From a virus (Duplodnaviria > Caudoviricetes), in IMG/VR virus record IMGVR_UViG_3300012940_000068, positions 1-32,496 of that record: DNA of 32,496 nt; one strand, given 5' to 3'. A program made the translations under genes and the position numbers. The notes beneath the pieces are model-generated. The model worked only from the letters and a program-made list of their open reading frames with translations, ran no database searches and was not told the origin of the DNA. Positions 3,714 through 19,950 of the stretch are shown here, in pieces. Each line of letters opens with the position of its first letter. Positions within the stretch are counted from its first letter, which is position 1.

Positions 3714-4005
3714 ACTGCGGGAACGGATCATGCGGGCCATATTCGATGCCGATTGCACCATCTGGAATGACCACACCGAGGCGTTCGAGGACGACGATCA
3801 TATCCACCTTGGGGCCGAAGCCGATGCCGTGCTCGCCGTCCTCCAGGCATCGCGGGACGAGCAGCGGGCAGAATTCCTCAACTTGAAGGTCAGCCTCGTG
3901 AATGCCGCTCGGCGTGGGGACATGGACCGCGTTTCTGAGATTGAGGAGAAACTGAACGATTGCTTCGACGCGGCGTTCGGCGGGGCGGAGGAGGTGACGG
4001 GGTGA
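3700..4005 (+). CDS. Hypothetical protein (101 aa)
   Basis: GGGAG RBS; overlapping start. Confidence 0.7.
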   Translation: MTSAELRERIMRAIFDADCTIWNDHTEAFEDDDHIHLGAEADAVLAVLQASRDEQRAEFLNLKVSLVNAARRGDMDRVSEIEEKLNDCFDAAFGGAEEVTG

Positions 4006-4262
4006 TGACACACATTAGCATCGTAACGGAACTCCTTCGCGAGTACAGCCAAGGCGCAGATGAGCGCGATATTGCAGAGAAGATCGTTCACCAGCTTATT
4101 CCGCCTGGATCGATCCTTGTGAGTTATCACGTAGCTCGGGAGTTGTATCGGGATATCCAGGAGGGCAGAATCACAAGGGCGCTTTCGACTCTCGAAGACA
4201 TCGCCGAGGCGGGTTATCGGTCAACCGCCACCCCGGACCCGCAGCCGGACGGAGGGGCGTAG
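4005..4262 (+). CDS. Hypothetical protein (MTHISIVT..., 85 aa)
   Basis: TGATG stop/start coupling; GGAGG upstream. Confidence 0.65.
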   Translation: MTHISIVTELLREYSQGADERDIAEKIVHQLIPPGSILVSYHVARELYRDIQEGRITRALSTLEDIAEAGYRSTATPDPQPDGGA

Positions 4263-4264
4263 GG

Positions 4265-4531
4265 ATGGCGGTTTATGCTGATGATCCACGGTGCGTCCGT
4301 TGGACCGCGATTGCCGAGGGTCATATCCACTGCTCGCAGTTGTTCGTATGGTGGGAAGGCGATGACCTACATGCCCGTTGTGAGCATCACGAAAAGGCGA
4401 ATGCCGTCGCACTCTCCCAGGCCCTGCCCGGCAATCGGTTTGCAATCGCGACGTACATTGATGGGGTAAAAGAGAAACGGGACGCGGTGATGAGAAAGCA
4501 CGACCCGTCCGGCACGCGCCGCGGCGGATGA
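4265..4531 (+). CDS. Hypothetical Cys/His-containing protein (88 aa)
   Basis: GGAGG upstream; tight packing. Confidence 0.6.
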   Translation: MAVYADDPRCVRWTAIAEGHIHCSQLFVWWEGDDLHARCEHHEKANAVALSQALPGNRFAIATYIDGVKEKRDAVMRKHDPSGTRRGG

Positions 4532-4550
4532 TGCGGGTGGAGGTGGAGTG

Positions 4551-4778
4551 ATGGAAACTGATGGCAAACGGTACTACTCAATTGAGCCGCTCGGCTATTC
4601 GGTCGAGTACGGGACATCAGGCTCAACAATCCGGCTCGATCACAGTCCAAGTAAGCGCACGCTGACCTTGACACCAAATTTCAATCGAGAACCGTCCGAG
4701 CCAATCGAGATGCGGCTGAGCGAGGAGAACAACGAGATCATCGGGGCGATCCTACAAGACTGGGCAAGGAGTTTGTAA
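4551..4778 (+). CDS. Hypothetical protein (75 aa)
   Basis: GGAGG/GGAG upstream of the ATG. Confidence 0.65.
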   Translation: METDGKRYYSIEPLGYSVEYGTSGSTIRLDHSPSKRTLTLTPNFNREPSEPIEMRLSEENNEIIGAILQDWARSL

Positions 4779-4813
4779 GTGCCGAAGCGCTGATGCCGGC
4801 GCGGGAGGGGGAG

Positions 4814-5020
4814 ATGGGTTCCATTCTGGACAGCATTGGGATATTCGGCGTGGCGATGATCGGCTGCGTCACGATGATTCTCGTTGGCGTCACATGGATG
4901 GTTTTACTCGAGCGAGATCAGCGTTATTGGCGAAGCGAACGAGACAAGAATATCCAACGGCGTCTAGAGCGTGGGGAGATCGACGAACTAGGCGCGAAGT
5001 TCTTACGAGGTAATCGCTAG
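4814..5020 (+). CDS. Small single-pass membrane protein
   Basis: GGAGG RBS; hydrophobic stretch IGIFGVAMIGCVTMILVGVTWMVLL followed by a charged tail. Confidence 0.65.
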   Translation: MGSILDSIGIFGVAMIGCVTMILVGVTWMVLLERDQRYWRSERDKNIQRRLERGEIDELGAKFLRGNR

Positions 5021-5254
5021 ATGCCGTCCCGCGACACCGACTGGGATTGCCTGGCGTGTAAGCGCTGCCTGGGGTGGATCACGTTCGATCGCTTCGAGCG
5101 GGCACACCTCAATTGCTCGCTCGAGGTGACCGGTGTGCAGCAAGCGACTGGGGCGCTGACGCCGTCTCCCTATTGGACGGTTGGCTGTGTCTGCGGGGAG
5201 ACGCGTAACTTCTTTGGGTACGCCGTGCATCTCAAGCTCGCGAACGCGGCATGA
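5021..5254 (+). CDS. Zinc-ribbon protein (W-x-CxxC...CxC), loosely Com-like
   Basis: DWDCLACKRCLG and VGCVCGETRNF; GAGG RBS. Confidence 0.65.
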   Translation: MPSRDTDWDCLACKRCLGWITFDRFERAHLNCSLEVTGVQQATGALTPSPYWTVGCVCGETRNFFGYAVHLKLANAA

Positions 5255-5281
5255 CGTTTTGCGCGAACGAAATACGCCTGA

Positions 5282-5402
5282 TGCTACACTTGTGACATAA
5301 CCGAATGTGGTGGGTTGCCCGCCGGTGCTGCGCTCGTTGGATTCATCGCGGATGAATGTGACGATGCGTGGCTCGGCGGGTTGCTGGTTTAAGTGGGCAG
5401 CG
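5282..5402 (+). promoter_or_regulatory. Putative extended -10 promoter (TGcTACACT) and structured leader of terS
   Basis: TG 5282-5283, TACACT 5285-5290; long imperfect hairpin 5318-5380. Confidence 0.5.
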
Positions 5403-5993
5403 ATGGCGGAGACGAGTCCGGAAAAGCTGAATGATCGGCAGATGGCCTTCGTTGCCGCCTATCTAAACGAGGCTCGCTTCAACGCGACCAAAGCCGCGGA
5501 AATCGCCGGGTACAAGAACGCTCGCCAGAACGGCACCCGGCTATTGTCAAATATTGTCATCAAGGCTGAGATCGATCGCTGGCGGGCAGAAATGAAGCAG
5601 TCGGTCATTGCCGATAGCGTGTATCGCGTCGCACGGATGCGGGAACTCGAACTGAAGTACTTCGCGCTGATTGATGCTCGAGCCGTTGATCTCAAGGATG
5701 AAGCGGCTGGCGGTGAAACTGGGCTCCTTGTTCGGCAAACGAAGCAGATCGGCGGTGGTCCGACAGCCGAGAAGGTTGTTGAATACGCCGCCGATACTGC
5801 GGTCACGCGTGAGATCCGCGAGCTCTACAAGCAGGTCGCCCAGGAACTCGGACAGTGGATCAGCCGGAGTGACAACACTACAAAGATCAGCGTTGAAGCG
5901 GACGAGTTGGCCCAACGCGTTGCCGAGGAGCTTGGCCTTGATAAGGGCGAGGTGCTCGCTGAGGCGCAAGCGATCATCGCGGGTGGACGTTGA
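5403..5993 (+). CDS. terS: Terminase small subunit
   Basis: KLNDRQMAFVAAYL..FNATKAAEIAGY..ARQNGTRLLSN HTH signature (Terminase_2-like); immediately upstream of terL. Confidence 0.9.
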   Translation: MAETSPEKLNDRQMAFVAAYLNEARFNATKAAEIAGYKNARQNGTRLLSNIVIKAEIDRWRAEMKQSVIADSVYRVARMRELELKYFALIDARAVDLKDEAAGGETGLLVRQTKQIGGGPTAEKVVEYAADTAVTREIRELYKQVAQELGQWISRSDNTTKISVEADELAQRVAEELGLDKGEVLAEAQAIIAGGR

Positions 5994-6814
5994 TGGTAGC
6001 CACGATGATCGACGCCATTGGGATCGTAGCCGTGCGTCATCGGCACCGGCGATCCAGTGCGGTCCCCACTCCCGTTGAACTTGCGGAGCGCCTCGGCATC
6101 GAGCTCGATCAGTGGCAACGAGATGCGCTCATGGCGCCGCAGTCAGGGAAACTGCTACTCGCGTCCCGTCAAGCAGGCAAATCGACCACGGCAAGCATCG
6201 ATGTGCTGCACACCGCGCTCTATAAACCGGGGTCGTTGTCCCTCATTCTCTCGCCAAGTGAACGGCAATCCAAGCGACTACTGCGAACGGTGCGGAAGCA
6301 CTATGCCAAGTTGGCCGATGAGTTTCCGGTGCGAACTATGGGACAGCTCAGCATTGAGCTAGAGAGTGGCTCAGAGATTCATGCCCTCCCTGGATCGGAA
6401 GAAACCATTCGTGGATTCTCGGCGGTGAACAAACTCGTGATCGATGAGGCATCGCTCGTTGAAGACGACCTTTACCAATCGGTGCGTCCGATGCTCGCGG
6501 TGTCCGGTGGCGAGATGACCGCCATGACAACCCCGCGTGGCAAGCGGGGCTGGTTCTATCGTGAATACACCGACGGTGGCGCGGATTGGCATCGTGCCCG
6601 TGTTACCGCCTACGACATCCCCCGCATTTCCCGCGCATGGCTCAACGCCGAACGTAAGAAGATCGGCGAGTGGTGGTTCAGCCAGGAATACCTCTGTGAG
6701 TTTGTCGATACCGACGACCAACTCTATCCGACAGACCTGGTCGATGCGGCCGAAAGTGATGACGTTGCGTCATTCGGCATCCCGATGCTGGGAGGTGGGG
6801 GATGGGCGAGTTAA
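5993..6814 (+). CDS. Terminase large subunit, ATPase domain only
   Basis: LDQWQ adenine-binding motif, Walker A ASRQAGKST, Walker B KLVIDEA, motif C TTPRG; ends shortly after FSQEYLCEF. Confidence 0.9.
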   Translation: MVATMIDAIGIVAVRHRHRRSSAVPTPVELAERLGIELDQWQRDALMAPQSGKLLLASRQAGKSTTASIDVLHTALYKPGSLSLILSPSERQSKRLLRTVRKHYAKLADEFPVRTMGQLSIELESGSEIHALPGSEETIRGFSAVNKLVIDEASLVEDDLYQSVRPMLAVSGGEMTAMTTPRGKRGWFYREYTDGGADWHRARVTAYDIPRISRAWLNAERKKIGEWWFSQEYLCEFVDTDDQLYPTDLVDAAESDDVASFGIPMLGGGGWAS

Positions 6815-7479
6815 TGCCGCCATCAACGTACCTGCTCGGACTTGACCTCGGGCAGTCCCAGGACTCCACCGCGCTCATTGCCGCATCGGTGACCGAGAAC
6901 GCGGCTGCCGACCATGAGTACGACGTAGGGCATATTGAGCGCGTCGGGCTTGGAACCCGGTACCCGGAAGTTGTCAAGCACGTGTGCGATGTTGTGGATT
7001 ACCTGCGTCGCCCGTATCACGTGCCGGGCATGCCAAAGGGCATCGAAAAGCGGGCGGATGTGTACCTGATTATTGATTACACCGGCGTCGGTCGACCCGT
7101 TGCCGACATGTTTCTTGATGCCAAGCCCAATTGCAATTTGACACTGATTACGATCACTGGTGGCGGTGCAGTTACGGCGGATCCGACAGGGGGGTGGAGA
7201 GTCCCCAAGCGCGACTTAGCGTCTTCGGTCCAGGTCGTCCTCCAAGACATGCGAGTTCGGTGGGCAAAGGGATTACCGCTAGTTCCTGAGCTCAAGCGTG
7301 AACTCACCGGATTCCGCGTCAAGATCAATGCTCGTGGGCATGACAGCTATGGAGCTGGTGAGGATTGGCGTTCAGCGCCGCACGATGATCTCGTGCTCGC
7401 ACTTGCGATGCTCGTTTGGTATGGGGAAACGAGACTTGTTCGAGGTCCGCTCGCCTGGTTTGTAGGAGACGACGAATGA
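6802..7479 (+). CDS. Terminase large subunit, RNase H-like nuclease domain as a separate gene
   Basis: LLGLDLGQSQDSTA, IIDYTGVGRPVAD and HDDLVLALAM catalytic motifs; own RBS GGAGG at 6791-6795; alternative ATG at 6814 (TAATG coupling). Confidence 0.88.
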   Translation: MGELMPPSTYLLGLDLGQSQDSTALIAASVTENAAADHEYDVGHIERVGLGTRYPEVVKHVCDVVDYLRRPYHVPGMPKGIEKRADVYLIIDYTGVGRPVADMFLDAKPNCNLTLITITGGGAVTADPTGGWRVPKRDLASSVQVVLQDMRVRWAKGLPLVPELKRELTGFRVKINARGHDSYGAGEDWRSAPHDDLVLALAMLVWYGETRLVRGPLAWFVGDDE

Positions 7480-9593
7480 ACCCAATCACGCGGCTCCTAA
7501 CTAGGCTTGGGAAAGGCATGGTCGAATCCACGGGATCCCGGGCATACCCGGTTGGACCAGCGATTGTTGAGCCCTACGAGGAACGGTGGGGACACGACGA
7601 TTCGGCGTATTCGCCGTCGGAATACCTCGATTACATCGCAACATCGAACAACGTCTACACCTGCGTGACGAAGCGGGCGAATGCCATGTCGGCGCTCCCG
7701 ATCAAGGTCTACAAGGGAAAAAAGAAGGATTCGCGGAAAGAAGTCGAGACCGGATCGCTCCGTAATCTGCTCGATAGCGTTAACCCTTGGATGACTTGGG
7801 ATCGGCTGATTAACCTCACAGAGCAATATCTATGCTTATCGGGTGAGGCGTTCTGGTTCCTGGAGCGCGGACGGCGTGGCGATCAGATGCCACAGGAAAT
7901 CTGGCCCGTTCGTCCGGATATGGTGCGCATCGTTCCTGACCCGGTGAACTTCATTCGTGGGTTCCTGCTCTATCCGCAGACTGGCGGCGAGCCGATCGCC
8001 TATACGCCGGATGAAGTGATCTGGTTCCCGTACCCGAACCCGAAAGACCCATATTCCGGGTTGGCGCCACTCGCGGCCGCGCGGCTTGCCGCCGATACCG
8101 CCTCTGCGGCCATGAAGAGCAACTACGGCATCTTCAGCAATGGTACGCGGCTTGGCGGCGTGATCTCCCCCCCGGATAACACGAGCAACATCACGGACGC
8201 GCAGGCGAAGGAGCTCCAACTCCTGTTCAACAAGAAACTTCGCGGACCGGACAAAACGCACGCACTCGCCGTACTTGCCTACGCTGTGAAGTTCCAGGAA
8301 TGGACGATGACGCCGAAGGACGCGGAGTTCCTCGGCGCGCTCGATTTGACTCTGGAAGAGATTGCTCGCGCGTTTGGCATTGCGCCTGACTTGCTCGGCG
8401 GAAGTAAGCGCACCTACCAAAACGCCCCTGAAGCTCGGTACGCATTCTGGGCCGACACGATCATGTCGGAAGCCCGGTTCATCCAAAATGTCATCACCGA
8501 GCGGTTGGTGCCGATGTTTGGCGATGAAGCGGATAGCGTGGAGTTCGATTTCTCTGATGTCGACGCCATGCGCGAGAACGAGGATGCCAAATGGAAGCGC
8601 GAAATGGAGCAGATCAATACCGGGGTGCTCCTGCGCAATGAATGGCGAGCAGACAAGGGCATGCCGGATGTGGAGTGGGGCGATGTCTGGTGGACCTCGT
8701 CGACGATGACCCCGATCTCGAGTGGTGCAATTGATCTCCCCGAATCGACGCAAGCGCCACCGGCTCTAACTGAGCAAGATGGGGTAATCGTCCCCGAGCC
8801 TCGGCATCACGTCCGTGCCGTCTACGGGTCTGACGACCATGCGGCGTTGTGGAAGCGGTATATCCGCCGCATCGACCCGCTCGAACGGAAATTCGGCGAG
8901 ATGTGCGCGGACCTCATGCGCCGGCAAAAGCGAGCGGTGCTCGCCAAGCTCCGGCAACGCTCGGCGCTCTCGGTGCGGGAGGCTGCCGCGGTGTCCGACG
9001 ATCCGTTCGACCTTGCCCGGTGGAACAAGACCTTCCGCGAGACCAGCCGTCCAACCTACCTGTCGATCGTCGAAACCGTCGGGCAAGCGGCGCTTGATGA
9101 CGTAAAGGTGAGCGCCGCGTTCGACGTGCTTGACCCCAACGTCGTGCGGTTCATCGAGCGGTCGTCGCAGCGGTTTGCGCGCGAGGTCAACCAGACCACC
9201 TGGGACAAGCTACGGGCAACGCTCCAAGAGGGCGTGAAATCCGGTGAAAGCATCGACGATCTCGCCGCCCGAGTAGAAGCCACGATGGGTGAGCGCATCC
9301 GCTCCAGCGCGGAGACCATTGCCCGCACGGAAACCATCGCGGCATCGACCGGTGGCACGCTGGAGAGTTGGCGACAGAGCGGCGTTGTGGGTGGAAAAGA
9401 GTGGAATGCGACACTTGATGAACGGTGCCGCGCCAGTCACGTCGAAGCCCACGGCCAGCGAGTCGCGCTCGACGCCAATTTCGAAGTTGGTGGCGCAACC
9501 GGCCCGGGGCCGGGGCAGATGAGTGACCCATCCGAGAGCGTGAATTGCCGGTGTGTGGTGGTGCCGATCCTCGATATCGATTGGGAGGGGTAG
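7476..9593 (+). CDS. HK97-family portal protein fused to a C-terminal MuF/SPP1 gp7-like minor head domain
   Basis: Portal motifs (VYTCVTKRANAMSALP, LSGEAFW, YSGLAPL, FSNG, IARAFGI, NEWRA); C-terminal IARTE..KEW..TLDERCRASH..NCRC MuF motifs; ATGA overlap. Confidence 0.9.
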   Translation: MNPITRLLTRLGKGMVESTGSRAYPVGPAIVEPYEERWGHDDSAYSPSEYLDYIATSNNVYTCVTKRANAMSALPIKVYKGKKKDSRKEVETGSLRNLLDSVNPWMTWDRLINLTEQYLCLSGEAFWFLERGRRGDQMPQEIWPVRPDMVRIVPDPVNFIRGFLLYPQTGGEPIAYTPDEVIWFPYPNPKDPYSGLAPLAAARLAADTASAAMKSNYGIFSNGTRLGGVISPPDNTSNITDAQAKELQLLFNKKLRGPDKTHALAVLAYAVKFQEWTMTPKDAEFLGALDLTLEEIARAFGIAPDLLGGSKRTYQNAPEARYAFWADTIMSEARFIQNVITERLVPMFGDEADSVEFDFSDVDAMRENEDAKWKREMEQINTGVLLRNEWRADKGMPDVEWGDVWWTSSTMTPISSGAIDLPESTQAPPALTEQDGVIVPEPRHHVRAVYGSDDHAALWKRYIRRIDPLERKFGEMCADLMRRQKRAVLAKLRQRSALSVREAAAVSDDPFDLARWNKTFRETSRPTYLSIVETVGQAALDDVKVSAAFDVLDPNVVRFIERSSQRFAREVNQTTWDKLRATLQEGVKSGESIDDLAARVEATMGERIRSSAETIARTETIAASTGGTLESWRQSGVVGGKEWNATLDERCRASHVEAHGQRVALDANFEVGGATGPGPGQMSDPSESVNCRCVVVPILDIDWEG

Positions 9594-9595
9594 CG

Positions 9596-9907
9596 GTGGG
9601 CAAGCTGTACTGCCTGAAAGCCGATATGGGCTATGCCGAACAATTCACCGATTCGACAGCGCTACCCGATGGTGTTGTTGCGGTGTCGGGGAAGTTCGCC
9701 GCCGGTGACACGACCGAGGACGAAACGGTTTACGTGATCTATAGCCGCGGCGATGGGACGAAGCGAGTCTCTATTGGGGATTGGGTCGTCACGTCTCTGA
9801 GTGGGACACGGACCATTTTCAATAACCGGGACTTTCTCAACCTTTTCGTATTGGCGGAAACGATGATTGAGGATATCCAGGCAGCGATGGGAGATGAGGA
9901 GGCGTAA
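9596..9907 (+). CDS. Hypothetical protein (103 aa)
   Basis: GGAGG RBS, GTG start 2 nt after the portal stop. Confidence 0.7.
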   Translation: MGKLYCLKADMGYAEQFTDSTALPDGVVAVSGKFAAGDTTEDETVYVIYSRGDGTKRVSIGDWVVTSLSGTRTIFNNRDFLNLFVLAETMIEDIQAAMGDEEA

Positions 9908-9911
9908 GCTC

Positions 9912-10139
9912 ATGCACTTCATTCACCGCTACGTCACCATCGACATCTACGGGAGACGACTCTGGCAGGAGTGCCGGGTGTGTGGAAAGCAACGAGCATT
10001 CGATTTGCCATCGTCAATGCTGCACAGCGGGAATCACAACACAAGGCCACAAGGGGTGATTGGATCGCCGCCGAGCCCGAATGCGCGACGAGTTGTTACA
10101 CGATCGACAGTGGTGGATCAAAAGGCGGACGCGGCATGA
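9912..10139 (+). CDS. Small His/Cys protein (HxxH...CRVC)
   Basis: GAGGAGG RBS; ATGA overlap with the next gene. Confidence 0.6.
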   Translation: MHFIHRYVTIDIYGRRLWQECRVCGKQRAFDLPSSMLHSGNHNTRPQGVIGSPPSPNARRVVTRSTVVDQKADAA

Positions 10140-10354
10140 CCTTTGCCTCAGCAATACACCAACCAGCTCTCATCGTCACCCGCTCTGGCCGGCAATGGTG
10201 GGTCTGTCCCGAATGCAACAAGACCATCGCCGAAGTGAAGCGTGAATCGATCGTGATCGAGATGCGAAACCGGCGTTTGGTGGTATCGGGGATGGCGTAT
10301 TCGCAGGTCTGCCCCCACTGTCACGCCACGAGTGAGTACCGGCAAGCGGCGTAG
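10136..10354 (+). CDS. Com-like zinc-ribbon protein (72 aa)
   Basis: WVCPECNKTIAE...QVCPHCHATSEY; two CxxC pairs, architecture like phage Mu Com. Confidence 0.7.
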   Translation: MTFASAIHQPALIVTRSGRQWWVCPECNKTIAEVKRESIVIEMRNRRLVVSGMAYSQVCPHCHATSEYRQAA

Positions 10355-10356
10355 TG

Positions 10357-10481
10357 TATAGTGTGATCAAGACATAAGCCCACTCATCGCTGGGCGTTAC
10401 TCCTGAGCGTTCCGAGCGCTGCGATGTGTCGTCAGAGAAGGCGGCGCATCGCAGCGTTTTTGCGTTTCAGGAGTGACCTCA
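10357..10481 (+). promoter_or_regulatory. Leader A: -10 box, hairpin P1 and attenuator upstream of the protease/capsid operon
   Basis: TATAGT 10357-10362; GCCCA-CTCATCGC-TGGGC 10378-10395; homologous to 17708-17829. Confidence 0.75.
10416..10467 (+). terminator. Intrinsic terminator within leader A
   Basis: 18-bp stem (10416-10433/10440-10457, with G-U pairs), loop AGAGAA, followed by TTTTGCGTTT. Confidence 0.85.
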
Positions 10482-11510
10482 ATGCCCGAGTACATGCGGG
10501 GCTATTGCGATCGAGCCGCGGCTGGAACCGGGAAGCCGGGCACCCCGATTCGATTCGTCGCCTCAACCGAGAACGTTGGCCGCGATGGCTTGATCCTCGA
10601 TGCCGATGGCTGGGAGCTCGATAACTTCCGTGCCAATCCCGCGTTTCTCTGGGTCCACGACTACATGGGCGAGCGGATGCCGATCGGCCGCGTGATCAAT
10701 GTGGAAGTCAAAGAGCGGCAGCTCATGGCGGATGTCGAGTTCGACCAGGAAGACGACTTCGCCCTGCAGGTCGAATCCAAATACCGGCGCGGGTTCCTGA
10801 ACGCCGTTTCGGTCGGATGGGACACCAAGGAATTCGCTCCTACCGAAAACCCGAATGTTGCTGGGCGATCAACGCGCCAGGAACTCCTTGATATCTCCGC
10901 TGTCCCGATCCCCGGCGATCCGAAGGCACTCAAGGAGCGCCAGATGCGGGCGCTCAAAGCGCTCGGTACCGAAATCCTCGAACTGGCCGATGGGAGTGAT
11001 GATACGACTCCTCCATCGGCTCAACCAACCAAGCCGACTCCAACCCCTGCACCTGACGCCGCGAGGCTGACCTGGCCCGATACCGCCGCCACGATGGTGG
11101 CCCTGTATCAGCCCTTCAGCCCACGACCGGACGATGAGCGGCGCGCGGAGTACCAGAGGCTCGACCGCGAGTACAGCCGCCACGGCAAGACCTCGCCGGA
11201 GTTCAAAACCGGCGCTGAGCTTGAAGCCCTGTCGCCGGACGACATCCGGGGATTGTTCAGTGCCGGCGAGCCGGAGTTGTTCCCCGAGAAGTTTGCCGCC
11301 ATGGCGAACCGTGCCGGAGCGGTGCTTTCCCAGCGCAATCGATCGGACCTCGATAAGGCCGGATCACTGTTGATCGAAGCCAACGACCTCATCAAGGCCG
11401 TGATCGAACGCGCCCAGAAGGAAGCTGACCAGCAGGACGAGCAAGACACCGAGCGCGCGGCGCTGGCCGCGATCACCCAGTTGCGAGACAAGTTCAAAGG
11501 AGTCGCCTAG
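10482..11510 (+). CDS. HK97-family prohead protease with a C-terminal extension
   Basis: FVASTENVGRDG, FLWVHD, PIGRV, LNAVSVGW, ELLDISAVPIPGDP motifs; CAGGAG RBS. Confidence 0.92.
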   Translation: MPEYMRGYCDRAAAGTGKPGTPIRFVASTENVGRDGLILDADGWELDNFRANPAFLWVHDYMGERMPIGRVINVEVKERQLMADVEFDQEDDFALQVESKYRRGFLNAVSVGWDTKEFAPTENPNVAGRSTRQELLDISAVPIPGDPKALKERQMRALKALGTEILELADGSDDTTPPSAQPTKPTPTPAPDAARLTWPDTAATMVALYQPFSPRPDDERRAEYQRLDREYSRHGKTSPEFKTGAELEALSPDDIRGLFSAGEPELFPEKFAAMANRAGAVLSQRNRSDLDKAGSLLIEANDLIKAVIERAQKEADQQDEQDTERAALAAITQLRDKFKGVA

Positions 11511-11512
11511 TC

Positions 11513-13003
11513 ATGTCCACTACGCAGCAGTTCGAGGAAGCCGTCAAGGATATCGCCGACCAGCTCGAAGCCCTCGGGCAGGCGGTCAATCCGCAGAAGA
11601 TCGAAGAGACGGTGCGCACGGTCTTTGCCGACGTGATCAAGCAGCCGGACTTCCTGCGCAAGATGCGGTTCGGCAGTCCGGAAGAGACCAACCTGATTGC
11701 CGCGAAGTTCCGCCGCCACGGCTTCAACCAGGCGGATATCGAGTTCCTCTACGACATGCAGACCAGCCTCAAGGGGCAGCGAAACGGCGATAACGGCGCG
11801 TATCTCGGACCGTCACAGGAACTTGAGGGCGCGTTCAATGCCGTTTCGGATGCTTACTACCTCACCCAAGAGGAAGTTCGGGCCATCGACAAGCAGGCGA
11901 TCGATAACCTGTTCGCCCGCGTGCCGAAGACTCGGGCGGCACGGAAGTCGTTCTTCGCCGAATACAAACGGGCGACCGGCGCGATGGATACCGCGGAGTC
12001 CGGCTACGGATCGCAGCTCATTGGCGCCCAGTACGTCGGCGATCTGTGGGATGGAGCCCGTGCGGAGTCCCGCATCTTTGCCCTGCTCGATCAGTTCGAA
12101 ATGACAGCGCCGGTCGCGTACCTGCCCGTGGAAGCGGACCTGCCGGAAATGCTCTACGTTGGCGAGTCGACCTCCGCCAGTGCGACCAACTACGACGCCG
12201 TCATGACGGGCTCGAACCGGGTCACCGTCGATGCCAAGAAGCTGATCATCCAGCAGATCTACAGCGGCGAGATGGAAGAGGATTCCATCATTCCATACAT
12301 CCCGTTCTTGCGTCGTCAGGCTGCGCTCGCGCTCGCGCATTACAGCGATAGCCTCGTGCTGAATGGCGACACCACGAATGCGAGCACCGGCAACATCAAC
12401 CTGGATGACGCCGATCCCGCGGATACCAAGCACTACCTTGCCTACGACGGCATTCGCCACGTGGGCCTGGTTGATAACACCGCCAATGGTCTCGATGTTG
12501 CTGGTGCCGTATCGCTGAACACGTACCGCGATCTCCGTGGACTGATGATCGATCGCACCAACCTGTTCGATTGGGGGCACCCGACGAACCGTGACGACCT
12601 GGTCTTCATCACCGATACCGTGACCGGCGACCGCACGGCGCTGCTCGATGAGATCGTGGTTGCGAAGCAGATGCTCGGCGCGAATGCCGATTTGCTCAAC
12701 GGCGAGATTGCCCGCATTCTCGGTCACCCGGTGATCTCGAGCATGGCGATGGGCCTGACCGAAGCCGACGGCAAGATCAGTGCCACACCCGCCAATAACA
12801 CCAAGGGGCAGATTGCCGCGTTCAACCGCCGCGGCTTCAAGGTCGGGATGCGCCGGCGTGTGAAGTTCGAGACCGAGCGCCTCGTTCGCACCGATCAGAC
12901 CGTGCTGTCGTGGAGTCTGCGCATGGGCATGGGGCGCTTCACCGCGACCGGCAACGTTTCGGGCATCGAAAGCGCTGCCGTCGCCTACGACATCTCCCTC
13001 TAG
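11513..13003 (+). CDS. Major capsid protein (HK97 fold)
   Basis: 496 aa after the protease; N-terminal helical delta-like region, YVGE, EMEEDS, VLNGD, ILGHPV motifs. Confidence 0.9.
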   Translation: MSTTQQFEEAVKDIADQLEALGQAVNPQKIEETVRTVFADVIKQPDFLRKMRFGSPEETNLIAAKFRRHGFNQADIEFLYDMQTSLKGQRNGDNGAYLGPSQELEGAFNAVSDAYYLTQEEVRAIDKQAIDNLFARVPKTRAARKSFFAEYKRATGAMDTAESGYGSQLIGAQYVGDLWDGARAESRIFALLDQFEMTAPVAYLPVEADLPEMLYVGESTSASATNYDAVMTGSNRVTVDAKKLIIQQIYSGEMEEDSIIPYIPFLRRQAALALAHYSDSLVLNGDTTNASTGNINLDDADPADTKHYLAYDGIRHVGLVDNTANGLDVAGAVSLNTYRDLRGLMIDRTNLFDWGHPTNRDDLVFITDTVTGDRTALLDEIVVAKQMLGANADLLNGEIARILGHPVISSMAMGLTEADGKISATPANNTKGQIAAFNRRGFKVGMRRRVKFETERLVRTDQTVLSWSLRMGMGRFTATGNVSGIESAAVAYDISL

Positions 13004-13019
13004 TTACGAACGGACTCGT

Positions 13020-13043
13020 GCCCGGCGGGTCATCCCGCCGGGC
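13020..13043 (+). terminator. GC-rich hairpin after the capsid gene (mRNA-stabilising or weak terminator)
   Basis: GCCCGGCGGG-TCAT-CCCGCCGGGC 10-bp stem; no long U tract. Confidence 0.55.
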
Positions 13044-13065
13044 TTCGCCACAAGGATGAGCCGAC

Positions 13066-13491
13066 ATGAGCATGATCACGCGGGATATCAGCAAGGGCCA
13101 ACTCATTCCGCTCGTTTTCGGCCAAGACGCCGTCGCGGCATCGCAGACGGATGTTCAACTCCCGACGGCGGCCGGCGAAGGATCGCAGGCGGTCGACGGC
13201 TACGCCATGCCGTTCGACTACCAGGTCGTGGCGGTCAGCGCTTCACTCTCCGCGGCGGCAACCGCCGGGACACTGAGCATCGGCGCCACGATCAACGGCA
13301 CCGAAGCGGCGGATTCCACATTCGTCGTTACCACTGCCACTAATGCGTATCAACGTGTCTTACGGGGCAAAGCGCGTGGAGCGGCGGGGTCACGCCTGGG
13401 AGCGGAGATCACGACGAATTCCGGGTGGGATGGCACGACATCAGACCTCGTGGTGACGGTATGGGTTATTGCGTCCCTCGACGGCATTTAG
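13066..13491 (+). CDS. Putative capsid decoration/cement protein (beta-rich)
   Basis: Directly after the capsid gene; Ala/Gly/Thr-rich with alternating beta-strand pattern. Confidence 0.6.
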   Translation: MSMITRDISKGQLIPLVFGQDAVAASQTDVQLPTAAGEGSQAVDGYAMPFDYQVVAVSASLSAAATAGTLSIGATINGTEAADSTFVVTTATNAYQRVLRGKARGAAGSRLGAEITTNSGWDGTTSDLVVTVWVIASLDGI

Positions 13492-13500
13492 GAGGCTCCG

Positions 13501-13956
13501 ATGGCACGCTATCTCTTTACCCAGAACTATTCCAGCAGTTATGGTCATGGCCGTGCGGGTGACGAAATCGAGTTCTCGGCTGAAACCGCGCATGCAATCA
13601 ACCGCGACGCGCCAGGCACGCTCAAGATGGTGCGTGAAAAGCAGGACGATAGTGCCAAGCAGGTTGCACAGGCGGTCGATCGCGTTACAGAGCTTGAGGC
13701 CGAAAACGAAGCCCTCAAGACGCGGATTGCGGAACTCGAAGCCGCTACCACCCCGAGTGAAGGCGATGCGTCAGAGCACGTCGGTTCCGGCCCGTTGGGC
13801 GACGGCGACGGTGTCAATCTCGGCACGGCTGCCGTCGAGCCGGACGACGAGGATGACAAGAAAAAGAGGCGGTCTCTTGACGCGCCACCAAGCGACCGCA
13901 TGGTAAAGACGGCATCCCGTCGCGCCTCCAAAACCGCCAAGGACGATCAGGAGTAG
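13501..13956 (+). CDS. Hypothetical head-region protein with coiled coil and charged tail
   Basis: AGGAGG RBS; VTELEAENEALKTRIAELEA heptads. Confidence 0.75.
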   Translation: MARYLFTQNYSSSYGHGRAGDEIEFSAETAHAINRDAPGTLKMVREKQDDSAKQVAQAVDRVTELEAENEALKTRIAELEAATTPSEGDASEHVGSGPLGDGDGVNLGTAAVEPDDEDDKKKRRSLDAPPSDRMVKTASRRASKTAKDDQE

Positions 13957-13958
13957 CC

Positions 13959-14285
13959 ATGATCGCGACGATCGCCGAAACCGAGTCTCTCTCGAGTGTC
14001 GTTGCGCTCGACAACCTCGTCATGGTTGCGATCCAGATGCCGGATGAGTGGGATGCCGCTACCTTGACCTTTCAGGCATCGACAGACGAGCAGGGGCCAT
14101 TTACCGACATGGTCAATGCCTCCGGCGCCGCAATGGAGGCGCAAGCGGCCGCGTCGCAATGGGTAGCGTTCCTGCCGACGGACTTTTGCAGCGTGCGGTA
14201 CCTCAAAATCCGGAGCGGGACAGCAGCGGCCGCGATCGCCCAATCGGCAAACCGTGTCCTGCGCGTTGTCGCGATCACGGTGTAG
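13959..14285 (+). CDS. Hypothetical beta-sandwich virion protein (108 aa)
   Basis: CAGGAG RBS; WDAATLTFQAS..RYLKIRSG pattern. Confidence 0.7.
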   Translation: MIATIAETESLSSVVALDNLVMVAIQMPDEWDAATLTFQASTDEQGPFTDMVNASGAAMEAQAAASQWVAFLPTDFCSVRYLKIRSGTAAAAIAQSANRVLRVVAITV

Positions 14286-14298
14286 GGGGAGGGACACC

Positions 14299-14871
14299 AT
14301 GAGCTTACTCACCTCCCTCATCAGCCCGATCCAGACCCCCACCGACGCCCACATCGCGGCGATCGCGGAGGCGCGGGTGGGGGGCGAAGATCCAACGCCG
14401 TACCCGATCACGCCGGTGTCCGGCGGTTCGATTGCGGCCTGGCCGGGTGGGAATCAGGGCATTTTCGTCAAGTTCCGGCTCGGTCGCGGGCGTCATGCCG
14501 TTGGGCTCCGTGTCCCGGTCGGCACGCCATCGGGCAATGCCAAGGTCGCGCTGTATGCGTCAGATGGTACGACCGCTACACAGATCGCGCTCTCGGCATC
14601 GACGGCACTGACCGCAACGAACGATTTTCAGGAAATCCCCTTTGCGGCGGCGGTCGATCTCGTGACGTTCACGGACTATTACGGGTTTCTTGCTGTGGAT
14701 AACGCCACCGCGACGTTCTACCGGCTGACATTCGGTGCAGGCGGCATCGCGGCCGATCTCGGCTATGCCGTCATCACCAACGTCTTTACGACGCCACCGG
14801 CCACACAAACGGTGTCGGGGCTCACGACTGGTGCCGCCAGCGGCTATACCCCGGTCCTGGCGTTGTACTAG
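14299..14871 (+). CDS. Hypothetical beta-rich virion protein (190 aa)
   Basis: GGAGG RBS; GNAKVALYASDG strand pattern. Confidence 0.7.
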   Translation: MSLLTSLISPIQTPTDAHIAAIAEARVGGEDPTPYPITPVSGGSIAAWPGGNQGIFVKFRLGRGRHAVGLRVPVGTPSGNAKVALYASDGTTATQIALSASTALTATNDFQEIPFAAAVDLVTFTDYYGFLAVDNATATFYRLTFGAGGIAADLGYAVITNVFTTPPATQTVSGLTTGAASGYTPVLALY

Positions 14872-14873
14872 CC

Positions 14874-16490
14874 ATGAGTGATGGTCCGTCCAATGCCCTC
14901 ATCCGCGAGCTCTCCAGGCGGGCGGCACTCATCCCGCAGCAGCGTGGGATCGTGACGCCGAATCCGGGGAGCGTGCGCATCCGCCCATTACCGGGCGTCA
15001 TGGCGGACCCGCCGACCGTGACCACCCCGGCCGGCAACACGGCATCGGCGATTACGACCCTCAACGGCGCGGTCGGGGCCGGTATCGATCTCGCGTCCAC
15101 GATTGGCGATAACGGCACCGCAACCTCCGCCACGAGCACGACGCTCACGCAGACCGGCAAAAATTGGGGGACGGCGAATCAGTACCGCGGCTACGATGTC
15201 ACGATCTGGTCAGGCACCGGGGCCGGGCAAATCCGTACCATCGCCTCGCACACGGCCGATACCCTGACCGTCGATGACCCATGGGACGTGACTCCCGACA
15301 ACACGAGCGTCTACGGCTTCTGGAATGTGCGCAAACACCGCGATTGGTCCTACCGGCACGCCGACATGATCGTGCATATCGCCAACCCGGCCACGTCGGG
15401 CTTTACCACCAACCGGGGTGATGTCAATTCCACCGTGCGGGCCGATACGCTGCCGATCGGGAGTGGCCGGTACTGGATTTGCTTTACCCACTGGGGCGAC
15501 CAATTTGAGATTCGTCACCGGGGCGCGGTCGGCAATCAGTTTCGGATCATGGTTGATAACAACTACGTGCAGTACACCCCGTACGCCTCAACGTCCGGCG
15601 ACAACCTGATCTACCGCACCCGCGTGGACTTCGCCAACGGCGAGACCGATGCCGCCACGCGGGCGACGTTCCGGGCGATGCGCAACATCGTCATCGAGTG
15701 CGCGGCGTCGTTCTCGTTCATGGGGCTGACGATCGGGCCAACGGACTCCGTATGGGCGCCGACCGACCCGACGACGCCAAAAGCGGTGATGATGACCGAC
15801 TCGTACGGCAACACCGGCAGCCTAGCAGTCTTTACCGCGTTCGGCGACACCCTCGCCAAGTTGCTCGGCATTCCGTGGATGCAGATCACCCCGGCGGGCG
15901 GGACCGGCTACGTCGCCACGAACGGCGGGACCTCGCCGACCTTTGTCGAGCGGTATCAAGCCGATATTGTCGATCGCGATCCCGACATCGTGTTCATCTA
16001 CGGCAGCCAGAATGACGGGGGGCTCGCCGGGATTTACACCGCCGCCCGAACCGTTCACGCGGGCGTACGGGCCGGTGTCGGGGCGACCGTCCCGGTCATC
16101 GTGTTCGGGCCATCGCCCGTCACCGGCGGTCCGGGTGCGACCACGATCCTGAGCCGTGACGACAACATGCGGGCCGGTCTCGATTCCCTCGCCGCCGGGG
16201 ACATTAATTTCTACGTGGACATCTTCGGCGGTCCGTATCCGTACTCGGGATCAACGAGCGATTACGTTGGCACCGGGCTGATTCGAGGCTTCGGCATCAA
16301 GAACACGCCGACCCATTCGGGGAACCGTGACGATTACTACGGGGGCACCACGGGCAGCGATAACAGCCATCCGACCCAGGACGGTCATGATGCCTATGCG
16401 TACTTCTACGCTCACGCCTTCTCGGAGTGGGTTGACGCCGGATGCCCGCAGGCGTACTGGCAGCCTGGTCGCGGGCTCGTGGTGGTGTAG
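14874..16490 (+). CDS. SGNH/GDSL hydrolase-domain virion protein with an N-terminal beta module
   Basis: Block I variant MTDSY, block II AGGTG, block III GSQND, block V DNSHP. Confidence 0.8.
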   Translation: MSDGPSNALIRELSRRAALIPQQRGIVTPNPGSVRIRPLPGVMADPPTVTTPAGNTASAITTLNGAVGAGIDLASTIGDNGTATSATSTTLTQTGKNWGTANQYRGYDVTIWSGTGAGQIRTIASHTADTLTVDDPWDVTPDNTSVYGFWNVRKHRDWSYRHADMIVHIANPATSGFTTNRGDVNSTVRADTLPIGSGRYWICFTHWGDQFEIRHRGAVGNQFRIMVDNNYVQYTPYASTSGDNLIYRTRVDFANGETDAATRATFRAMRNIVIECAASFSFMGLTIGPTDSVWAPTDPTTPKAVMMTDSYGNTGSLAVFTAFGDTLAKLLGIPWMQITPAGGTGYVATNGGTSPTFVERYQADIVDRDPDIVFIYGSQNDGGLAGIYTAARTVHAGVRAGVGATVPVIVFGPSPVTGGPGATTILSRDDNMRAGLDSLAAGDINFYVDIFGGPYPYSGSTSDYVGTGLIRGFGIKNTPTHSGNRDDYYGGTTGSDNSHPTQDGHDAYAYFYAHAFSEWVDAGCPQAYWQPGRGLVVV

Positions 16491-16499
16491 GAGGCAGGG

Positions 16500-16868
16500 A
16501 TGGTCGATGCAGTGGTCAACGTTCCATATCGATTCTGGATCATTGATCTTCAAGATCTCGATGGGAATCCAATTGTTGGGGCAACGTGGGACACCTCGGG
16601 CTGCACCAATACCGATGAGGCCGTGATCACCAGTCCAGACAATGACAGCGATTACCTCGTAACCATCACAGCAGCAGCGACGGGAGCGTGGAAATTCAAA
16701 GCGATCCCCAATGACGAACCGTTGCTGATGCAGGCACGCACGATTCAGGTAGGGACCGACTCCGCCGCCGCCCTCCTCGCCGCGCCGGTGGCGGGGTATG
16801 GCGCGGGGACGGTGGGGTACAGCATCGAGGCAACCTTCAAGCGGCCGATCAGGGCAGGTGATGTATGA
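16500..16868 (+). CDS. Hypothetical Ig-like virion protein (122 aa)
   Basis: AGGAGG RBS; beta-rich; ATGA overlap with the next gene. Confidence 0.7.
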   Translation: MVDAVVNVPYRFWIIDLQDLDGNPIVGATWDTSGCTNTDEAVITSPDNDSDYLVTITAAATGAWKFKAIPNDEPLLMQARTIQVGTDSAAALLAAPVAGYGAGTVGYSIEATFKRPIRAGDV

Positions 16869-17698
16869 CGCTCCTCAACACGACCGCGATCGCTAACTTC
16901 AGCCTGCTCACAAGCGGCCAGACCTTCACCCGTACTGCTTCGTCGATTGCGGGTACTGCAATTGCCTGGGATCCAAACTTCACCGACAACGGCGATGGGT
17001 CCTATACCGCAACGTACCTCGTCAACCAGCTTGGGATTTGGCAGTGGGGCGGGGAATCGACCGACGGCACGGTCGTGTCAATCGAGTGGGATGTCACGTC
17101 CGTCAACACGAACTACACGACCCTGAACGACCTCAAGGCGAGGCTCAACCGCGGGGATATCACCGTCACGAACGACGACGCCCGTCTTGAGGCTATCATC
17201 GCGGCTGCCTCGCGCGAAATCGACGGAATGACCAACCGGGTCTTTTACCAACTGCCCAATGAAACTCGGTACTTCACCGCCGACTGTGGCGACTGGCTCG
17301 CGATCGATGATCTCGTCAGCGTGACCAGTATCGCGACCGACGATGGCAGCCGCACCTACGGCACGACGTGGCAGGTGACAGACTACGATCTGGAGCCGTA
17401 TAACGCGGCGTCGAAGCAGTTCCCATACACTAACTTGCACATCGCACCGAATGGACACAATGCATTCCCGCGCACCCGGCGTGGCGTGCGCATTACCGGC
17501 ACCTGGGGCTGGCCCGCCATCCCGTCAGCGGTCACGGAAGCGTGCCTCTTGATCGCGCAGCGGCTTGCCACGCGAAGCAAAGCTCCGTTCGGGGTTGCGG
17601 GCGCGCAGGACGGCACGGCAGTCTATCTCCCGCGTACCGATCCGGATGCACGGGCACTCCTTGAACCGTATCGCCGGTTCGCGGTCGGCGTGATCTAG
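16865..17698 (+). CDS. Head-tail connector (gp6/gp15-like) with an N-terminal Ig-like extension
   Basis: YTTLNDLKARL..DDARLEAIIAAASREIDGMTNRVF..WGWPAIPSAVTEACL..LLEPYRR; N-terminal TDNGDGSYTATY motif. Confidence 0.82.
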   Translation: MTLLNTTAIANFSLLTSGQTFTRTASSIAGTAIAWDPNFTDNGDGSYTATYLVNQLGIWQWGGESTDGTVVSIEWDVTSVNTNYTTLNDLKARLNRGDITVTNDDARLEAIIAAASREIDGMTNRVFYQLPNETRYFTADCGDWLAIDDLVSVTSIATDDGSRTYGTTWQVTDYDLEPYNAASKQFPYTNLHIAPNGHNAFPRTRRGVRITGTWGWPAIPSAVTEACLLIAQRLATRSKAPFGVAGAQDGTAVYLPRTDPDARALLEPYRRFAVGVI

Positions 17699-17707
17699 GG
17701 CATCGGG

Positions 17708-17829
17708 TATACTGACCATAATCAAAGATGACCCACTGATCGCTGGGTAACTCAGGCGCACACACGCCGCGATCGCTTGTCAGAGGAGGCAGGCGATCGC
17801 GGCGTTTTTGTTTTGCGTGAGGACCGGCG
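17708..17829 (+). promoter_or_regulatory. Leader B: -10 box, hairpin P1 and attenuator upstream of the neck/tail operon
   Basis: TATACT 17708-17713; ACCCA-CTGATCGC-TGGGT 17731-17748; homologous to leader A. Confidence 0.75.
17764..17814 (+). terminator. Intrinsic terminator within leader B
   Basis: 18-bp stem (17764-17781/17788-17805), loop AGAGGA, followed by TTTTGTTTT. Confidence 0.87.
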
Positions 17830-18384
17830 ATGGCGCAGGTGGATGCGGAAATCAAGGGATTGGACGAGCTGATTCGCAAGCTCAGTCCTGACCTTGTCGC
17901 TGCTCCGGTTCGCCGGTTTATGGAGCGTTCCGCAATCCTGATCCAGGGCAAGGCGCGGCAAAACGTCAAGAGCGACACCGGTCGCCTCGCCAACTCCATT
18001 GCGTACGAAATCCATGGTGCCCACGTCCCGTTGTGGGCGACGGTCGGAACGAATCTCGACTATGCCGCTGCACGTGAGTTCCAACGCCCACCCGGCAAGA
18101 TGCCGCCGCCAGGCGCGCTGGTTCCGTGGATGAATCACGTGGGCATTCCGCTCTCCGAGTACCACGGTTCCACGGTTGGGCTCTCGCCGGATGCGCGCGT
18201 TGGGAATAGCGCTTATTCCCCAATCGAATACCTGATCGCCCGCAAGATCGGCCGCGAGGGATCACCCGGTCATCCCTATCTCCGCCCAGCGCTCAAGGAC
18301 TCCGAGGGGCAGATCACCGGGCGATTGCTCGAGACATGTGCTCGTGAGATCGAAGCCGCAGCGAGCCAGGGGGTGTCGGCGTAA
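17830..18384 (+). CDS. HK97 gp10-like neck/tail-completion protein
   Basis: EIKGLDELIRKL..DTGRLANSI..VGTNLDYAA..HPYLRPAL. Confidence 0.85.
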   Translation: MAQVDAEIKGLDELIRKLSPDLVAAPVRRFMERSAILIQGKARQNVKSDTGRLANSIAYEIHGAHVPLWATVGTNLDYAAAREFQRPPGKMPPPGALVPWMNHVGIPLSEYHGSTVGLSPDARVGNSAYSPIEYLIARKIGREGSPGHPYLRPALKDSEGQITGRLLETCAREIEAAASQGVSA

Positions 18385-18851
18385 TGGCGCTCGATGCGGT
18401 CATCACCACCATCCAGGACGTCGTGCGGCAGGTGCCGGGCATTGGAGCAAGCCCCGATAACCCACCGTCCCAGGAACTCCGTGACCCCGTACTGCTGGTC
18501 TACCCCGGTGACGCGACGAGCTGGCTGGGTACCTCCGTCGGCGCCGGTGGCGTGCCCAACCGCTGGGACTTCGAAACGATCATGATCGATGTCTTTGTCT
18601 ACGTCGCGGATGAACTGGAGATCGCGTTTCAGCGCATCCGTCCGTTTGCCGATCCGGTGCGGAAAGCACTGTTCGACGCGTTCGCCCGGGACAAGTTCGG
18701 CGGCACCGTTGCCGGACTCGGTGATGTCACTAATCGAAGCGCGATCCGGCCATACCGCCGCTCATCGATGTCGTTCATGGCAGGCGGCATCAACGTGCTC
18801 GGGTACCACCACGAGCTCGATGTGACGTACCAGGAGGTGATCAGCCGGTGA
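18384..18851 (+). CDS. Putative tail terminator protein
   Basis: Position between the neck and tail tube genes, size 155 aa, TAATG coupling. Confidence 0.6.
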   Translation: MALDAVITTIQDVVRQVPGIGASPDNPPSQELRDPVLLVYPGDATSWLGTSVGAGGVPNRWDFETIMIDVFVYVADELEIAFQRIRPFADPVRKALFDAFARDKFGGTVAGLGDVTNRSAIRPYRRSSMSFMAGGINVLGYHHELDVTYQEVISR

Positions 18852-19198
18852 CCGATCCCAAGCGCACGTGGCGCGGGCGCCAGCTCTACCAGTGCGACCA
18901 GTGCCCATACAACACGATCCACGAACGGCACTACCAGGAGCATCTACGACTCGACCATCCCGAACCGAAGCCGCACCCATTGCGGCCGGTAGCAGCCCAG
19001 GAGGACGAACCCAATGGCGCGAGTGACCCACACGGCGCAGAAGAAAGCGACCGCGAGCCCGCTGGACGGGGTAGTCCTGACGGAGACCGCGGCGGACGTG
19101 ACGAACAAGGAACAGGTGAAGTGGACGGGGAGAGAAATCATCGTCGCCCACAACACCGGCGCCAGCGCGCGAACGGTAACGATCACGAGCACGGCTGA
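18848..19198 (+). CDS. C2H2 zinc-finger protein; C-terminus overlaps the next gene by 185 nt
   Basis: YQCDQCPYNTIHERHYQEHLRLDH; CAGGAGG RBS; GTGA overlap. Confidence 0.6.
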   Translation: MTDPKRTWRGRQLYQCDQCPYNTIHERHYQEHLRLDHPEPKPHPLRPVAAQEDEPNGASDPHGAEESDREPAGRGSPDGDRGGRDEQGTGEVDGERNHRRPQHRRQRANGNDHEHG

Positions 19199-19358
19199 CA
19201 GTCTCGGGCGCACCGGGGACATCACCGCCGATTCCATTGCCGCCGGCGCGATTGCGTTCTACGGCCCGTTCAACGGCGAAGGCTGGAAGCAAGCTGACGG
19301 CTACATCTACTTCGAAGCCAACAACGCCGAGGTGAAGTTCGGCATCATCGGCTGGTAG
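19014..19358 (+). CDS. Hypothetical tail-region virion protein (114 aa)
   Basis: AGGAGG RBS; beta-rich; directly before the tail tube gene. Confidence 0.75.
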   Translation: MARVTHTAQKKATASPLDGVVLTETAADVTNKEQVKWTGREIIVAHNTGASARTVTITSTADSLGRTGDITADSIAAGAIAFYGPFNGEGWKQADGYIYFEANNAEVKFGIIGW

Positions 19359-19382
19359 GCCAGCCAGGAGGAGACCAGCGCA

Positions 19383-19823: not shown

Positions 19824-19828
19824 CGCTG

Positions 19829-19950
19829 GGCGTCCGCAATGTCCCGGTGCTCGGCAGCCTCCAGGCGCCGGGCATTGGGGCGCCATCTCGCACGGTGCGG
19901 GGTGGGATTGCCAACCATAGGAGGCTGACCACATGGAGGCTGCCGACATG
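19829..19950 (+). promoter_or_regulatory. Structured intergenic element with anti-RBS loop and tandem RBS/ATG
   Basis: Hairpin 19829-19884; loop 19851-19863 is the exact reverse complement of 19934-19946. Confidence 0.65.

Follow-up and report, generated by a model that had tools for sequence, protein, structure and literature searches.

Phage late genes are opened by factors that modify RNA polymerase or by activation of a promoter, and in lambdoid phages promoter-proximal terminators stand before them. Elsewhere, BglG/LicT/SacY proteins act with the RAT element, a protein-held RNA structure over the 5′ arm of a terminator that leads to read-through, and ZTP-type switches are pseudoknot ON switches similar in design to the fluoride riboswitch. 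In the fluoride riboswitch (RF01734), as set out in the available text of PMC11077080, a 6-bp pseudoknot over the terminator base forms first and gates termination kinetically, being displaced unless stabilised, and stronger pseudoknot pairing leads to ‘broken ON’ switches. ANTAR and other RNA-binding antiterminators likewise give read-through by means of a protein-held structure that overlaps a terminator arm (available text of PMC12591593); the whole words ‘phage’ and ‘pseudoknot’ are absent from the main text of this 2025 review. In phage Mu, Com is a small four-cysteine zinc ribbon that acts at the mom leader, where control is translational and the structure that inhibits translation is a helix hiding the ribosome-binding site (available text of PMC6483171). 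GP20-a (RF02991) and six further GP20 candidates are structured RNAs located upstream of head genes (available text of PMC10690425). The literature search, which covered few subscription papers and neither the PMC5737381 nor the PMC10690425 supplements, found no description of the element reported here.

The DNA analysed (the window, i.e. the whole record of 32,496 bases) has a tailed-phage gene order of terminase, portal with Mu-F domain, prohead protease, capsid, adaptor, neck, tail tube, chaperones and tape measure, and a related protease occurs in three GTDB genomes labelled Thermomicrobiales, Acidimicrobiales and Conexibacter. Leader A is flanked by a 72-aa four-cysteine ORF upstream and the prohead protease gene downstream, and leader B by the head–tail adaptor gene and an HK97-gp10-like gene (Table 1). 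These are the strongest terminator-like sites in 4000–23900, and they are homologous, with 15 of 18 positions identical in the P1 hairpin, 35 of 47 in the terminator region and 11 of 12 in the terminator apex (10431–10442 in A). Both have a −10-like box that would mark a promoter; a consensus scan gave no full promoter match and the leaders have no good −35 box. No variant of either leader is seen in one DNA sequencing run, which may be the record's own source.

Table 1. Features of leaders A and B and of neighbouring genes in the window (S2, loop–arm helix; P1 and P2, hairpins; promoters are putative).
Feature	Position	Strand	Remarks
Third leader, differently built	5285..5402	+	before terminase small subunit; −10-like box, AACCGAAT start motif
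Four-cysteine zinc-ribbon ORF, 72 aa	10136..10354	+	CxxC-31-CxxC; ends 2 nt before leader A −10 box
−10-like box, leader A	10357..10362	+	without good −35; putative promoter, start near 10369
P1 hairpin A	10378..10395	+	5 bp, 8-nt loop; loop bases 10385–10390 are 5′ strand of S2
Linker (L3), leader A	10396..10405	+	10-bp complementarity to ribosome-binding region 10468–10477
P2 hairpin A	10406..10420	+	3′ strand is first 5 nt of terminator arm
S2 3′ strand, leader A	10421..10426	+	inside terminator 5′ arm, immediately 3′ of P2
Intrinsic-terminator-like hairpin A	10416..10461	+	with T run (hairpin 10416–10457); 18 bp, −34.5 kcal/mol
Prohead protease gene	10482..11510	+	first gene 3′ of leader A; start is Met conserved in ≥90% of 76 relatives
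Capsid gene	11513..13003	+	next after prohead protease
−10-like box, leader B	17708..17713	+	9 nt past stop of head–tail adaptor gene; putative promoter
P1 hairpin B	17731..17748	+	loop bases 17738–17743 are 5′ strand of S2
Linker, leader B	17749..17754	+	17751–17754 complementary to 17818–17821 in ribosome-binding region
P2 hairpin B	17755..17768	+	predicted; 3′ strand in foot of terminator arm
S2 3′ strand, leader B	17769..17774	+	inside terminator 5′ arm
Intrinsic-terminator-like hairpin B	17764..17809	+	with T run (hairpin 17764–17805); 18 bp, −36.2 kcal/mol
HK97-gp10-like neck/tail-completion gene	17830..18384	+	first gene 3′ of leader B; then tail tube, chaperones, tape measure

An earlier note had drawn attention to a complementarity between the P1 loop and the 5′ arm of the terminator in both leaders, and this observation is borne out in each of its details. 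The loop hexamer CATCGC of leader A is complementary to GCGATG in the arm, and GATCGC of leader B to GCGATC; each target begins 5 nt into the 18-bp terminator arm, and the single loop difference between A and B is compensated in the arm (10385/17738 with 10426/17774). The resulting helix (S2) has four G–C pairs and no wobble, and its predicted H-type geometry consists of a 5-bp stem, a 2-nt L1, the 6-bp S2, no L2, and an L3 of 10 nt (A) or 6 nt (B) together with P2. Judged by the standard spacing rules for H-type pseudoknots, the predicted arm pairing is the one with standard spacing among the loop's possible partners, of which there is more than one, as 4 bp with the linker (likewise covarying) and, in leader B, 8 bp with the start-codon region are possible as well. 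The caution that CGATCG-like words are common in this DNA also holds, GATC-type words being frequent, with 31–43 copies of each hexamer in the record. When 200,000 random 8-mers of this contig are used as loops, so that its CGATCG richness is included, the six bases at the 3′ side of the loop match the arm by chance in 0.57% (A) and 1.1% (B) of cases, and any 6-bp loop–arm match is found in 1.4% (A) and 2.6% (B). Four of 176 like-shaped hairpins on both strands have a match, two of these being leaders A and B (others: 2/174). Given these chance levels and the two matches among other hairpins, the loop–arm match alone is uncommon but not extraordinary. With a strict descriptor applied to 61 terminators, 6 bp are found only in those of this record, and five of the 59 others reach 5 bp, from the 5′ side of the loop. 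The survival of all six S2 pairs through the divergence of A and B, including one compensation, has a chance of ∼0.010–0.016 in a simple substitution model applied post hoc to two copies that, being homologous, are not independent samples.

A second predicted hairpin, P2, absent from the first reading, occupies the foot of the terminator arm, and the 5-nt offset of the S2 target arises because the P2 3′ strand is the arm foot. P2 and S2 abut, and together cover 11 (A) and 10 (B) of the 18 arm bases. The arms of A and B differ at positions 1, 5, 11, 12, 13 and 15; of these, 5 and 11 lie inside the block of P2 core and S2, and for each of them both the 5′ partner and the 3′ arm carry the corresponding change, whereas positions 12, 13 and 15, outside this block, change freely. 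A three-way covariation is thereby seen in S2 (loop 10385/17738, 5′ arm 10426/17774, 3′ arm 10447/17795; C, G, C to G, C, G) and another in P2 (5′ strand 10406/17755, arm 10420/17768, 3′ arm 10453/17801; A, T, A to G, C, G). All ten pairs of S2 and the 4-bp P2 core are Watson–Crick in both copies, with a chance of 0.0005–0.0008 of all ten being kept (same simple model, post hoc, two homologous copies), and the foot pair of P1 is also compensated (G–C in A, A–U in B). Further to these helices, the linker of leader A may form 10 bp with the ribosome-binding region (chance 0.00045 in one test, p 0.003 in another) and that of leader B a 4-bp core (chance 0.03 and p 0.017, respectively), with one compensated pair between the copies. 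An identical C/G swap is thus found at five positions, i.e. loop, linker, 5′ arm, 3′ arm and ribosome-binding site, and pairing of the ribosome-binding region at p ≤ 0.05 is seen in 7 of 41 leaders, including A, B and the relative L141. As S2 belongs to a predicted 10-bp antiterminator with two compensations, accompanied by a helix that would hide the ribosome-binding site, the observation is stronger than first reported.

The predicted architecture has parallels in each of the described systems. A pseudoknot strand that overlaps the 5′ arm of the terminator is predicted in leaders A and B as in fluoride- and ZTP-type switches, from which they differ in having no Rfam match, an extra P2 at the terminator foot, phage structural genes downstream and no known ligand pocket. 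The putative antiterminator (P2 and S2) overlaps the 5′ arm as in RAT and ANTAR systems, but it is predicted to be knotted, and the P1 loop is 8 nt; no Pfam match to a CAT/PRD or ANTAR protein was obtained among 37 ORFs, and of the ANTAR pattern of two hexaloops with A1 and G4, the terminator apex loop alone has A1/G4. A putative promoter followed by a terminator before late structural genes is shared with lambda PR′-tR′-Q and with BrrG/GafZ of gene transfer agents; A and B differ in that every gene block has its own short leader with a competing RNA fold, that the ORFs scanned gave no Q-like match and that the pause element is not enriched. Leader A resembles the GP20 RNAs as a structured element directly upstream of head genes, but no Rfam family is matched at leader A or B, the five matches up to E 5 in the whole record all lying elsewhere. 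By the features tested, the leaders would resemble pseudoknot ON riboswitches and RAT elements in how they work without belonging to either kind, nor to the Com/mom or Q systems, and they are best filed as an undescribed variant of the terminator/antiterminator attenuator at phage late operons, with two copies in its support.

The fold consisting of P1 and the terminator is calculated at −42.7 (A) and −42.4 (B) kcal/mol, and the full knotted form at ∼−22 to −26 kcal/mol (self-chosen Dirks–Pierce-like penalty, no coaxial stacking). The original argument that 6 bp cannot prevail unaided over 18 bp requires correction in its count, as P2 adds 4–6 bp at the arm foot, and stands in its outcome, as the OFF form is still more stable than the ON form by ∼19–20 kcal/mol. 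Such a gap is beyond what a protein or metabolite could pay at equilibrium, and the switch must therefore be kinetic. When the S2 strand has just emerged, the knot comes to an estimated −19.6 (A) and −18.7 (B) kcal/mol by a rough penalty model, and the best unknotted fold to −15.4 and −15.1 kcal/mol; the 3′ arm reaches S2 21 nt after S2 is complete, and the terminator hairpin is complete after 31 nt. As the predicted knot and the strong terminator compete for the same bases, an on/off switch for the late genes is likely. What the earlier note proposed, a pseudoknot exclusive of the terminator with ON logic, is thus kept as to the alternative pairing, the H-type geometry and the logic, all as predicted, while the exclusion would be kinetic only and leader B can form S2 unknotted. 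On the whole we lean, with reserve, towards reading the duplicated leader before the capsid and neck/tail blocks as a transcription attenuator, in which a knotted ON fold forms first and gives way to the terminator unless held by a protein that is probably phage-encoded. RNA polymerase would start ∼7 nt past the −10 box, or come from upstream, and P1, P2 and S2 are predicted to fold before the 3′ arm has been made. This arm would by default nucleate at the apex and displace S2 and P2 to give the 18-bp terminator, and a late factor on the P1/S2/apex surface may slow this displacement until the polymerase clears the U run. In read-through RNA the linker is predicted to pair with the ribosome-binding site as a second, translational lock, which the knot may hinder. 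If this is correct, the leader RNA itself decides read-through by the choice between knot and terminator, amounting to riboswitch-like control in a phage that is probably worked by protein; if the pairing fails, the leaders join the promoter–terminator leaders that are frequent in these phages anyway. The element is shorter than 115 nt, with two natural variants and the exact mutations named, and is therefore cheap to test.

The relatives comprise 230 loci, collected from an alignment of 76 proteases and one of two capsid sequences. Upstream DNA was long enough in 109 distinct protease loci (this record included); 19 of them have a terminator no more than 130 nt from the protease start, a −10-like box precedes 18 of these 19 terminators, and three loci (L109, L111, L150) have a second leader 6–8.5 kb downstream, at the neck position. 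In most relatives the 5′ segment folds with the arm foot into a simple hairpin, and in L112, L116 and the two L159 leaders the 5′ strand and the arm change together. Own-arm pairing of the 5′ segments beats shuffles (p ≤ 0.05) in 7 of 34 boxed leaders, A and B included, as against 1 of 30 other hairpins; with swapped partners, a hard control given that the leaders share GC words, only 1 of 17 leader clusters falls in the top tenth (Mann–Whitney p 0.013 versus other hairpins). Covariation in homologues, which the earlier note had named as a check, did not materialise, there being no third copy and none of 12 upstream hairpin loops in relatives pairing by at least 5 bp with the arm. In IMG/VR, a scan with the exact two-part pattern gave no match, and P1 with the apex gave 108 loci, none of which folds into the leader architecture. 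P1 with the linker gave at least 118 loci, with no third copy in the 93 distinct matches examined among the matches listed; the apex with the T run gave nine loci and no third copy; and P1 with the arm word gave 59 loci, which are in no case followed by a terminator and, where they recur, are coding sequence. A covariance model run on 196 of the 230 related loci (34 distant or duplicate loci omitted) found no third copy, the best outside match having an E of 0.14, and on 151 genomes of one order it returned three matches, all without P1. In a genome of the Thermomicrobiales order, a chromosomal hairpin (L466, near 1500) has the GCCGCGATCG stem word and a GGAGAA loop without P1; it resembles the window terminators, and the apex may thus be ordinary terminator vocabulary. 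The relative most like leader A, L141, has the order zinc ribbon, box, P1, anti-RBS linker, GCG-loop-CGC and terminator but is without S2, a 5-nt loop pairing with the linker (5 bp) and not with the arm.

As to the trigger, the earlier suggestion of a stabilising protein or small ligand holds in its first half, with a phage protein as the likeliest, if candidate, trigger; a ligand is without support (no Rfam match, structural genes downstream), and stabilisation at equilibrium would be too costly. The 72-aa ORF upstream of leader A offers a parallel to Mu, namely a small four-cysteine zinc ribbon beside a structured leader with a predicted helix hiding the ribosome-binding site. It was rejected as a Com member, PF10122 being absent from its 23 weak families at E ≤ 0.05; it has a 31-residue spacer, and mom as described in the available text of PMC6483171 is without a terminator. 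The Com target motif given in the same text, CC(N)2-3GAG, is absent from leaders A and B and is found in 3 of 34 leaders versus 3.7 expected. A structure model of the ORF is composed of beta-strand (pLDDT 68.5), with no fold match at E ≤ 0.001, no relatives by word search and unnamed clusters only in the Atlas. Counting zinc-ribbon ORFs whose end lies no more than 350 nt from the protease, 4 of 19 protease loci with a leader terminator have one as compared to 4 of 90 without (Fisher p 0.030), or 3 of 18 versus 4 of 90 when this record is excluded (p 0.089); of the four zinc-ribbon loci without a counted terminator, two (L117 and L138) have a leader-like hairpin that the terminator filter passed over. 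No zinc ribbon adjoins 15 of the 19 protease leaders, nor leader B; its lack beside leader B is compatible with action in trans. Provided that the switch is operated by protein, we regard the zinc ribbon as a possible but tentative candidate. The fuller proposal, in which a zinc-ribbon protein from the end of the terminase–portal block clamps the knotted leader, thereby making the capsid and tail blocks accessible to transcription and translation alike and setting the order of the late genes, with the leader a knotted member of a wide, undescribed family of phage attenuators, we hold to be doubtful.

A switch of this kind could do without a pseudoknot if P1 opened and the loop–arm helix closed a three-way junction with P2. 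The best unknotted fold of leader B has just this form, with all six S2 pairs and P2 and with P1 open (probability 0.03), and simple hairpins are used by the relatives; yet the unknotted ensemble of leader A retains P1 (0.84) and does not form S2, P1 has a compensated pair of its own, the spacing fits an H-type knot, and the knot is estimated ∼4 kcal/mol lower in both leaders (rough penalty model), and we consider the junction unlikely. It is very improbable, in our judgement, that A and B are plain terminators with a chance match inherited through leader duplication, even with the frequency of GATC-type words, the missing third copy, the many rival pairings and the post hoc nature of the analysis in its favour. 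An ancestral match of ∼1% would have to be combined with a chance of ∼0.001 for keeping ten pairs with two compensations, and the terminator lies 20–25 nt before the protease start, too close for a promoter to fit in between, so that it must be passed somehow.

The main alternative to a protein holding the knot, as to the trigger, is a Q-like factor of the lambda PR′-tR′ type that modifies the polymerase such that both terminators are ignored, P1 being a loading or pause site and the loop–arm match incidental or a matter of tuning. Such a scheme would agree with promoter-proximal terminators before late genes, as in gene transfer agents (available text of PMC11150451 and 10.1101/2024.11.20.624540), with a RusA-like gene upstream and with most leader-bearing relatives having no adjoining zinc ribbon. 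We rate it as rather unlikely, in that the ORFs scanned (37 and 23) gave no Q-like or sigma-like family match, where many upstream ORFs are without a family and part of the genome may be missing from the contig; leader A lacks the NANNNT pause element, which B has and which is found in 8 of 34 leaders versus 11.5 expected (box positions in this 34-leader count are off by one base in some rows, so that its −35 counts are too low); comparison of A with B found no conserved block upstream of the two −10 boxes; and a processive factor leaves the compensated S2 and P2 pairs unexplained. If instead no factor were involved, kinetic competition alone could fix read-through in a leaky attenuator that balances the amounts of portal, capsid and tail. 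The G–C-rich S2 would suit this reading, stronger pairing being what yields ‘broken ON’ fluoride switches, but capsid genes presumably need high output, which a −35 kcal/mol terminator together with a helix hiding the ribosome-binding site would limit strongly, and P1 and the apex are conserved beyond the needs of pairing; this makes it improbable. An orphan riboswitch for a host metabolite or ion, to which the likeness with fluoride- and ZTP-type ON switches might point, is barely credible in view of the structural genes downstream, the Rfam result at the leaders and the confinement of the element to one phage, with unrelated 5′ folds at that place in relatives. Our preferred reading thus remains the knotted attenuator held by a protein.

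The third leader of the window (Table 1) has a 7-bp 5′ hairpin and a long hairpin with a weak T run, the first overlapping the foot of the second, and a 77-aa four-cysteine ORF (5021–5254) ends 30 nt upstream of it; the 5021–5402 region shows a logic as in leaders A and B in unrelated sequence. A third small CxxC...CxxC ORF (32300–32458) lies at the contig end, where the sequence beyond is cut off. Among the relatives, L206 has a true Mu Com gene (864–1046; PF10122, 9e-09) placed between its Mu-F and protease genes, and no leader terminator was detected there. CTTGA-type loops are found at the terminator foot (L138 near 9735, L156 near 4500, L135 near 2715, L439 near 3860), in hairpins whose stem is compensated (GCGC/GGCC); these match the Com target motif fully or almost so, without being enriched over all leaders. 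The motif GGYGAC-N6-GCCRCC, a hairpin with an A–C mismatch, occurs in L109 (1984–2056 and 9038–9110), L123 (5540–5608) and L126 (3467–3535), twice per leader at the terminator foot and apex, and looks like a tandem protein site. A leader subfamily of the form GCC..C/A..GCGGC (L120 9909, L146 7933, L150 9903 and 18411, L111 4798 and 11071, L268 1681) has a conserved C–A mismatch at the terminator foot and a protease without an adjoining zinc ribbon. In 15 of 34 boxed leaders, an AACnGA-like conserved motif distinct from NANNNT is present 6–11 nt past the −10 box, and probably lies at the transcript start. Elsewhere in the window, the large terminase is split over two overlapping ORFs, 5990–6814 (ATPase part) and 6802–7479 (nuclease part), and a cassette at 24593–27395, between the tape measure and tail genes, contains a pair of genes on the reverse strand (one of them DUF4236/TM2) and a YgiT/MqsA-type zinc-finger ORF (27087–27395). 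The tape measure gene has at 22435–23386 five degenerate 40-nt repeats that are spaced by multiples of ∼126 nt.
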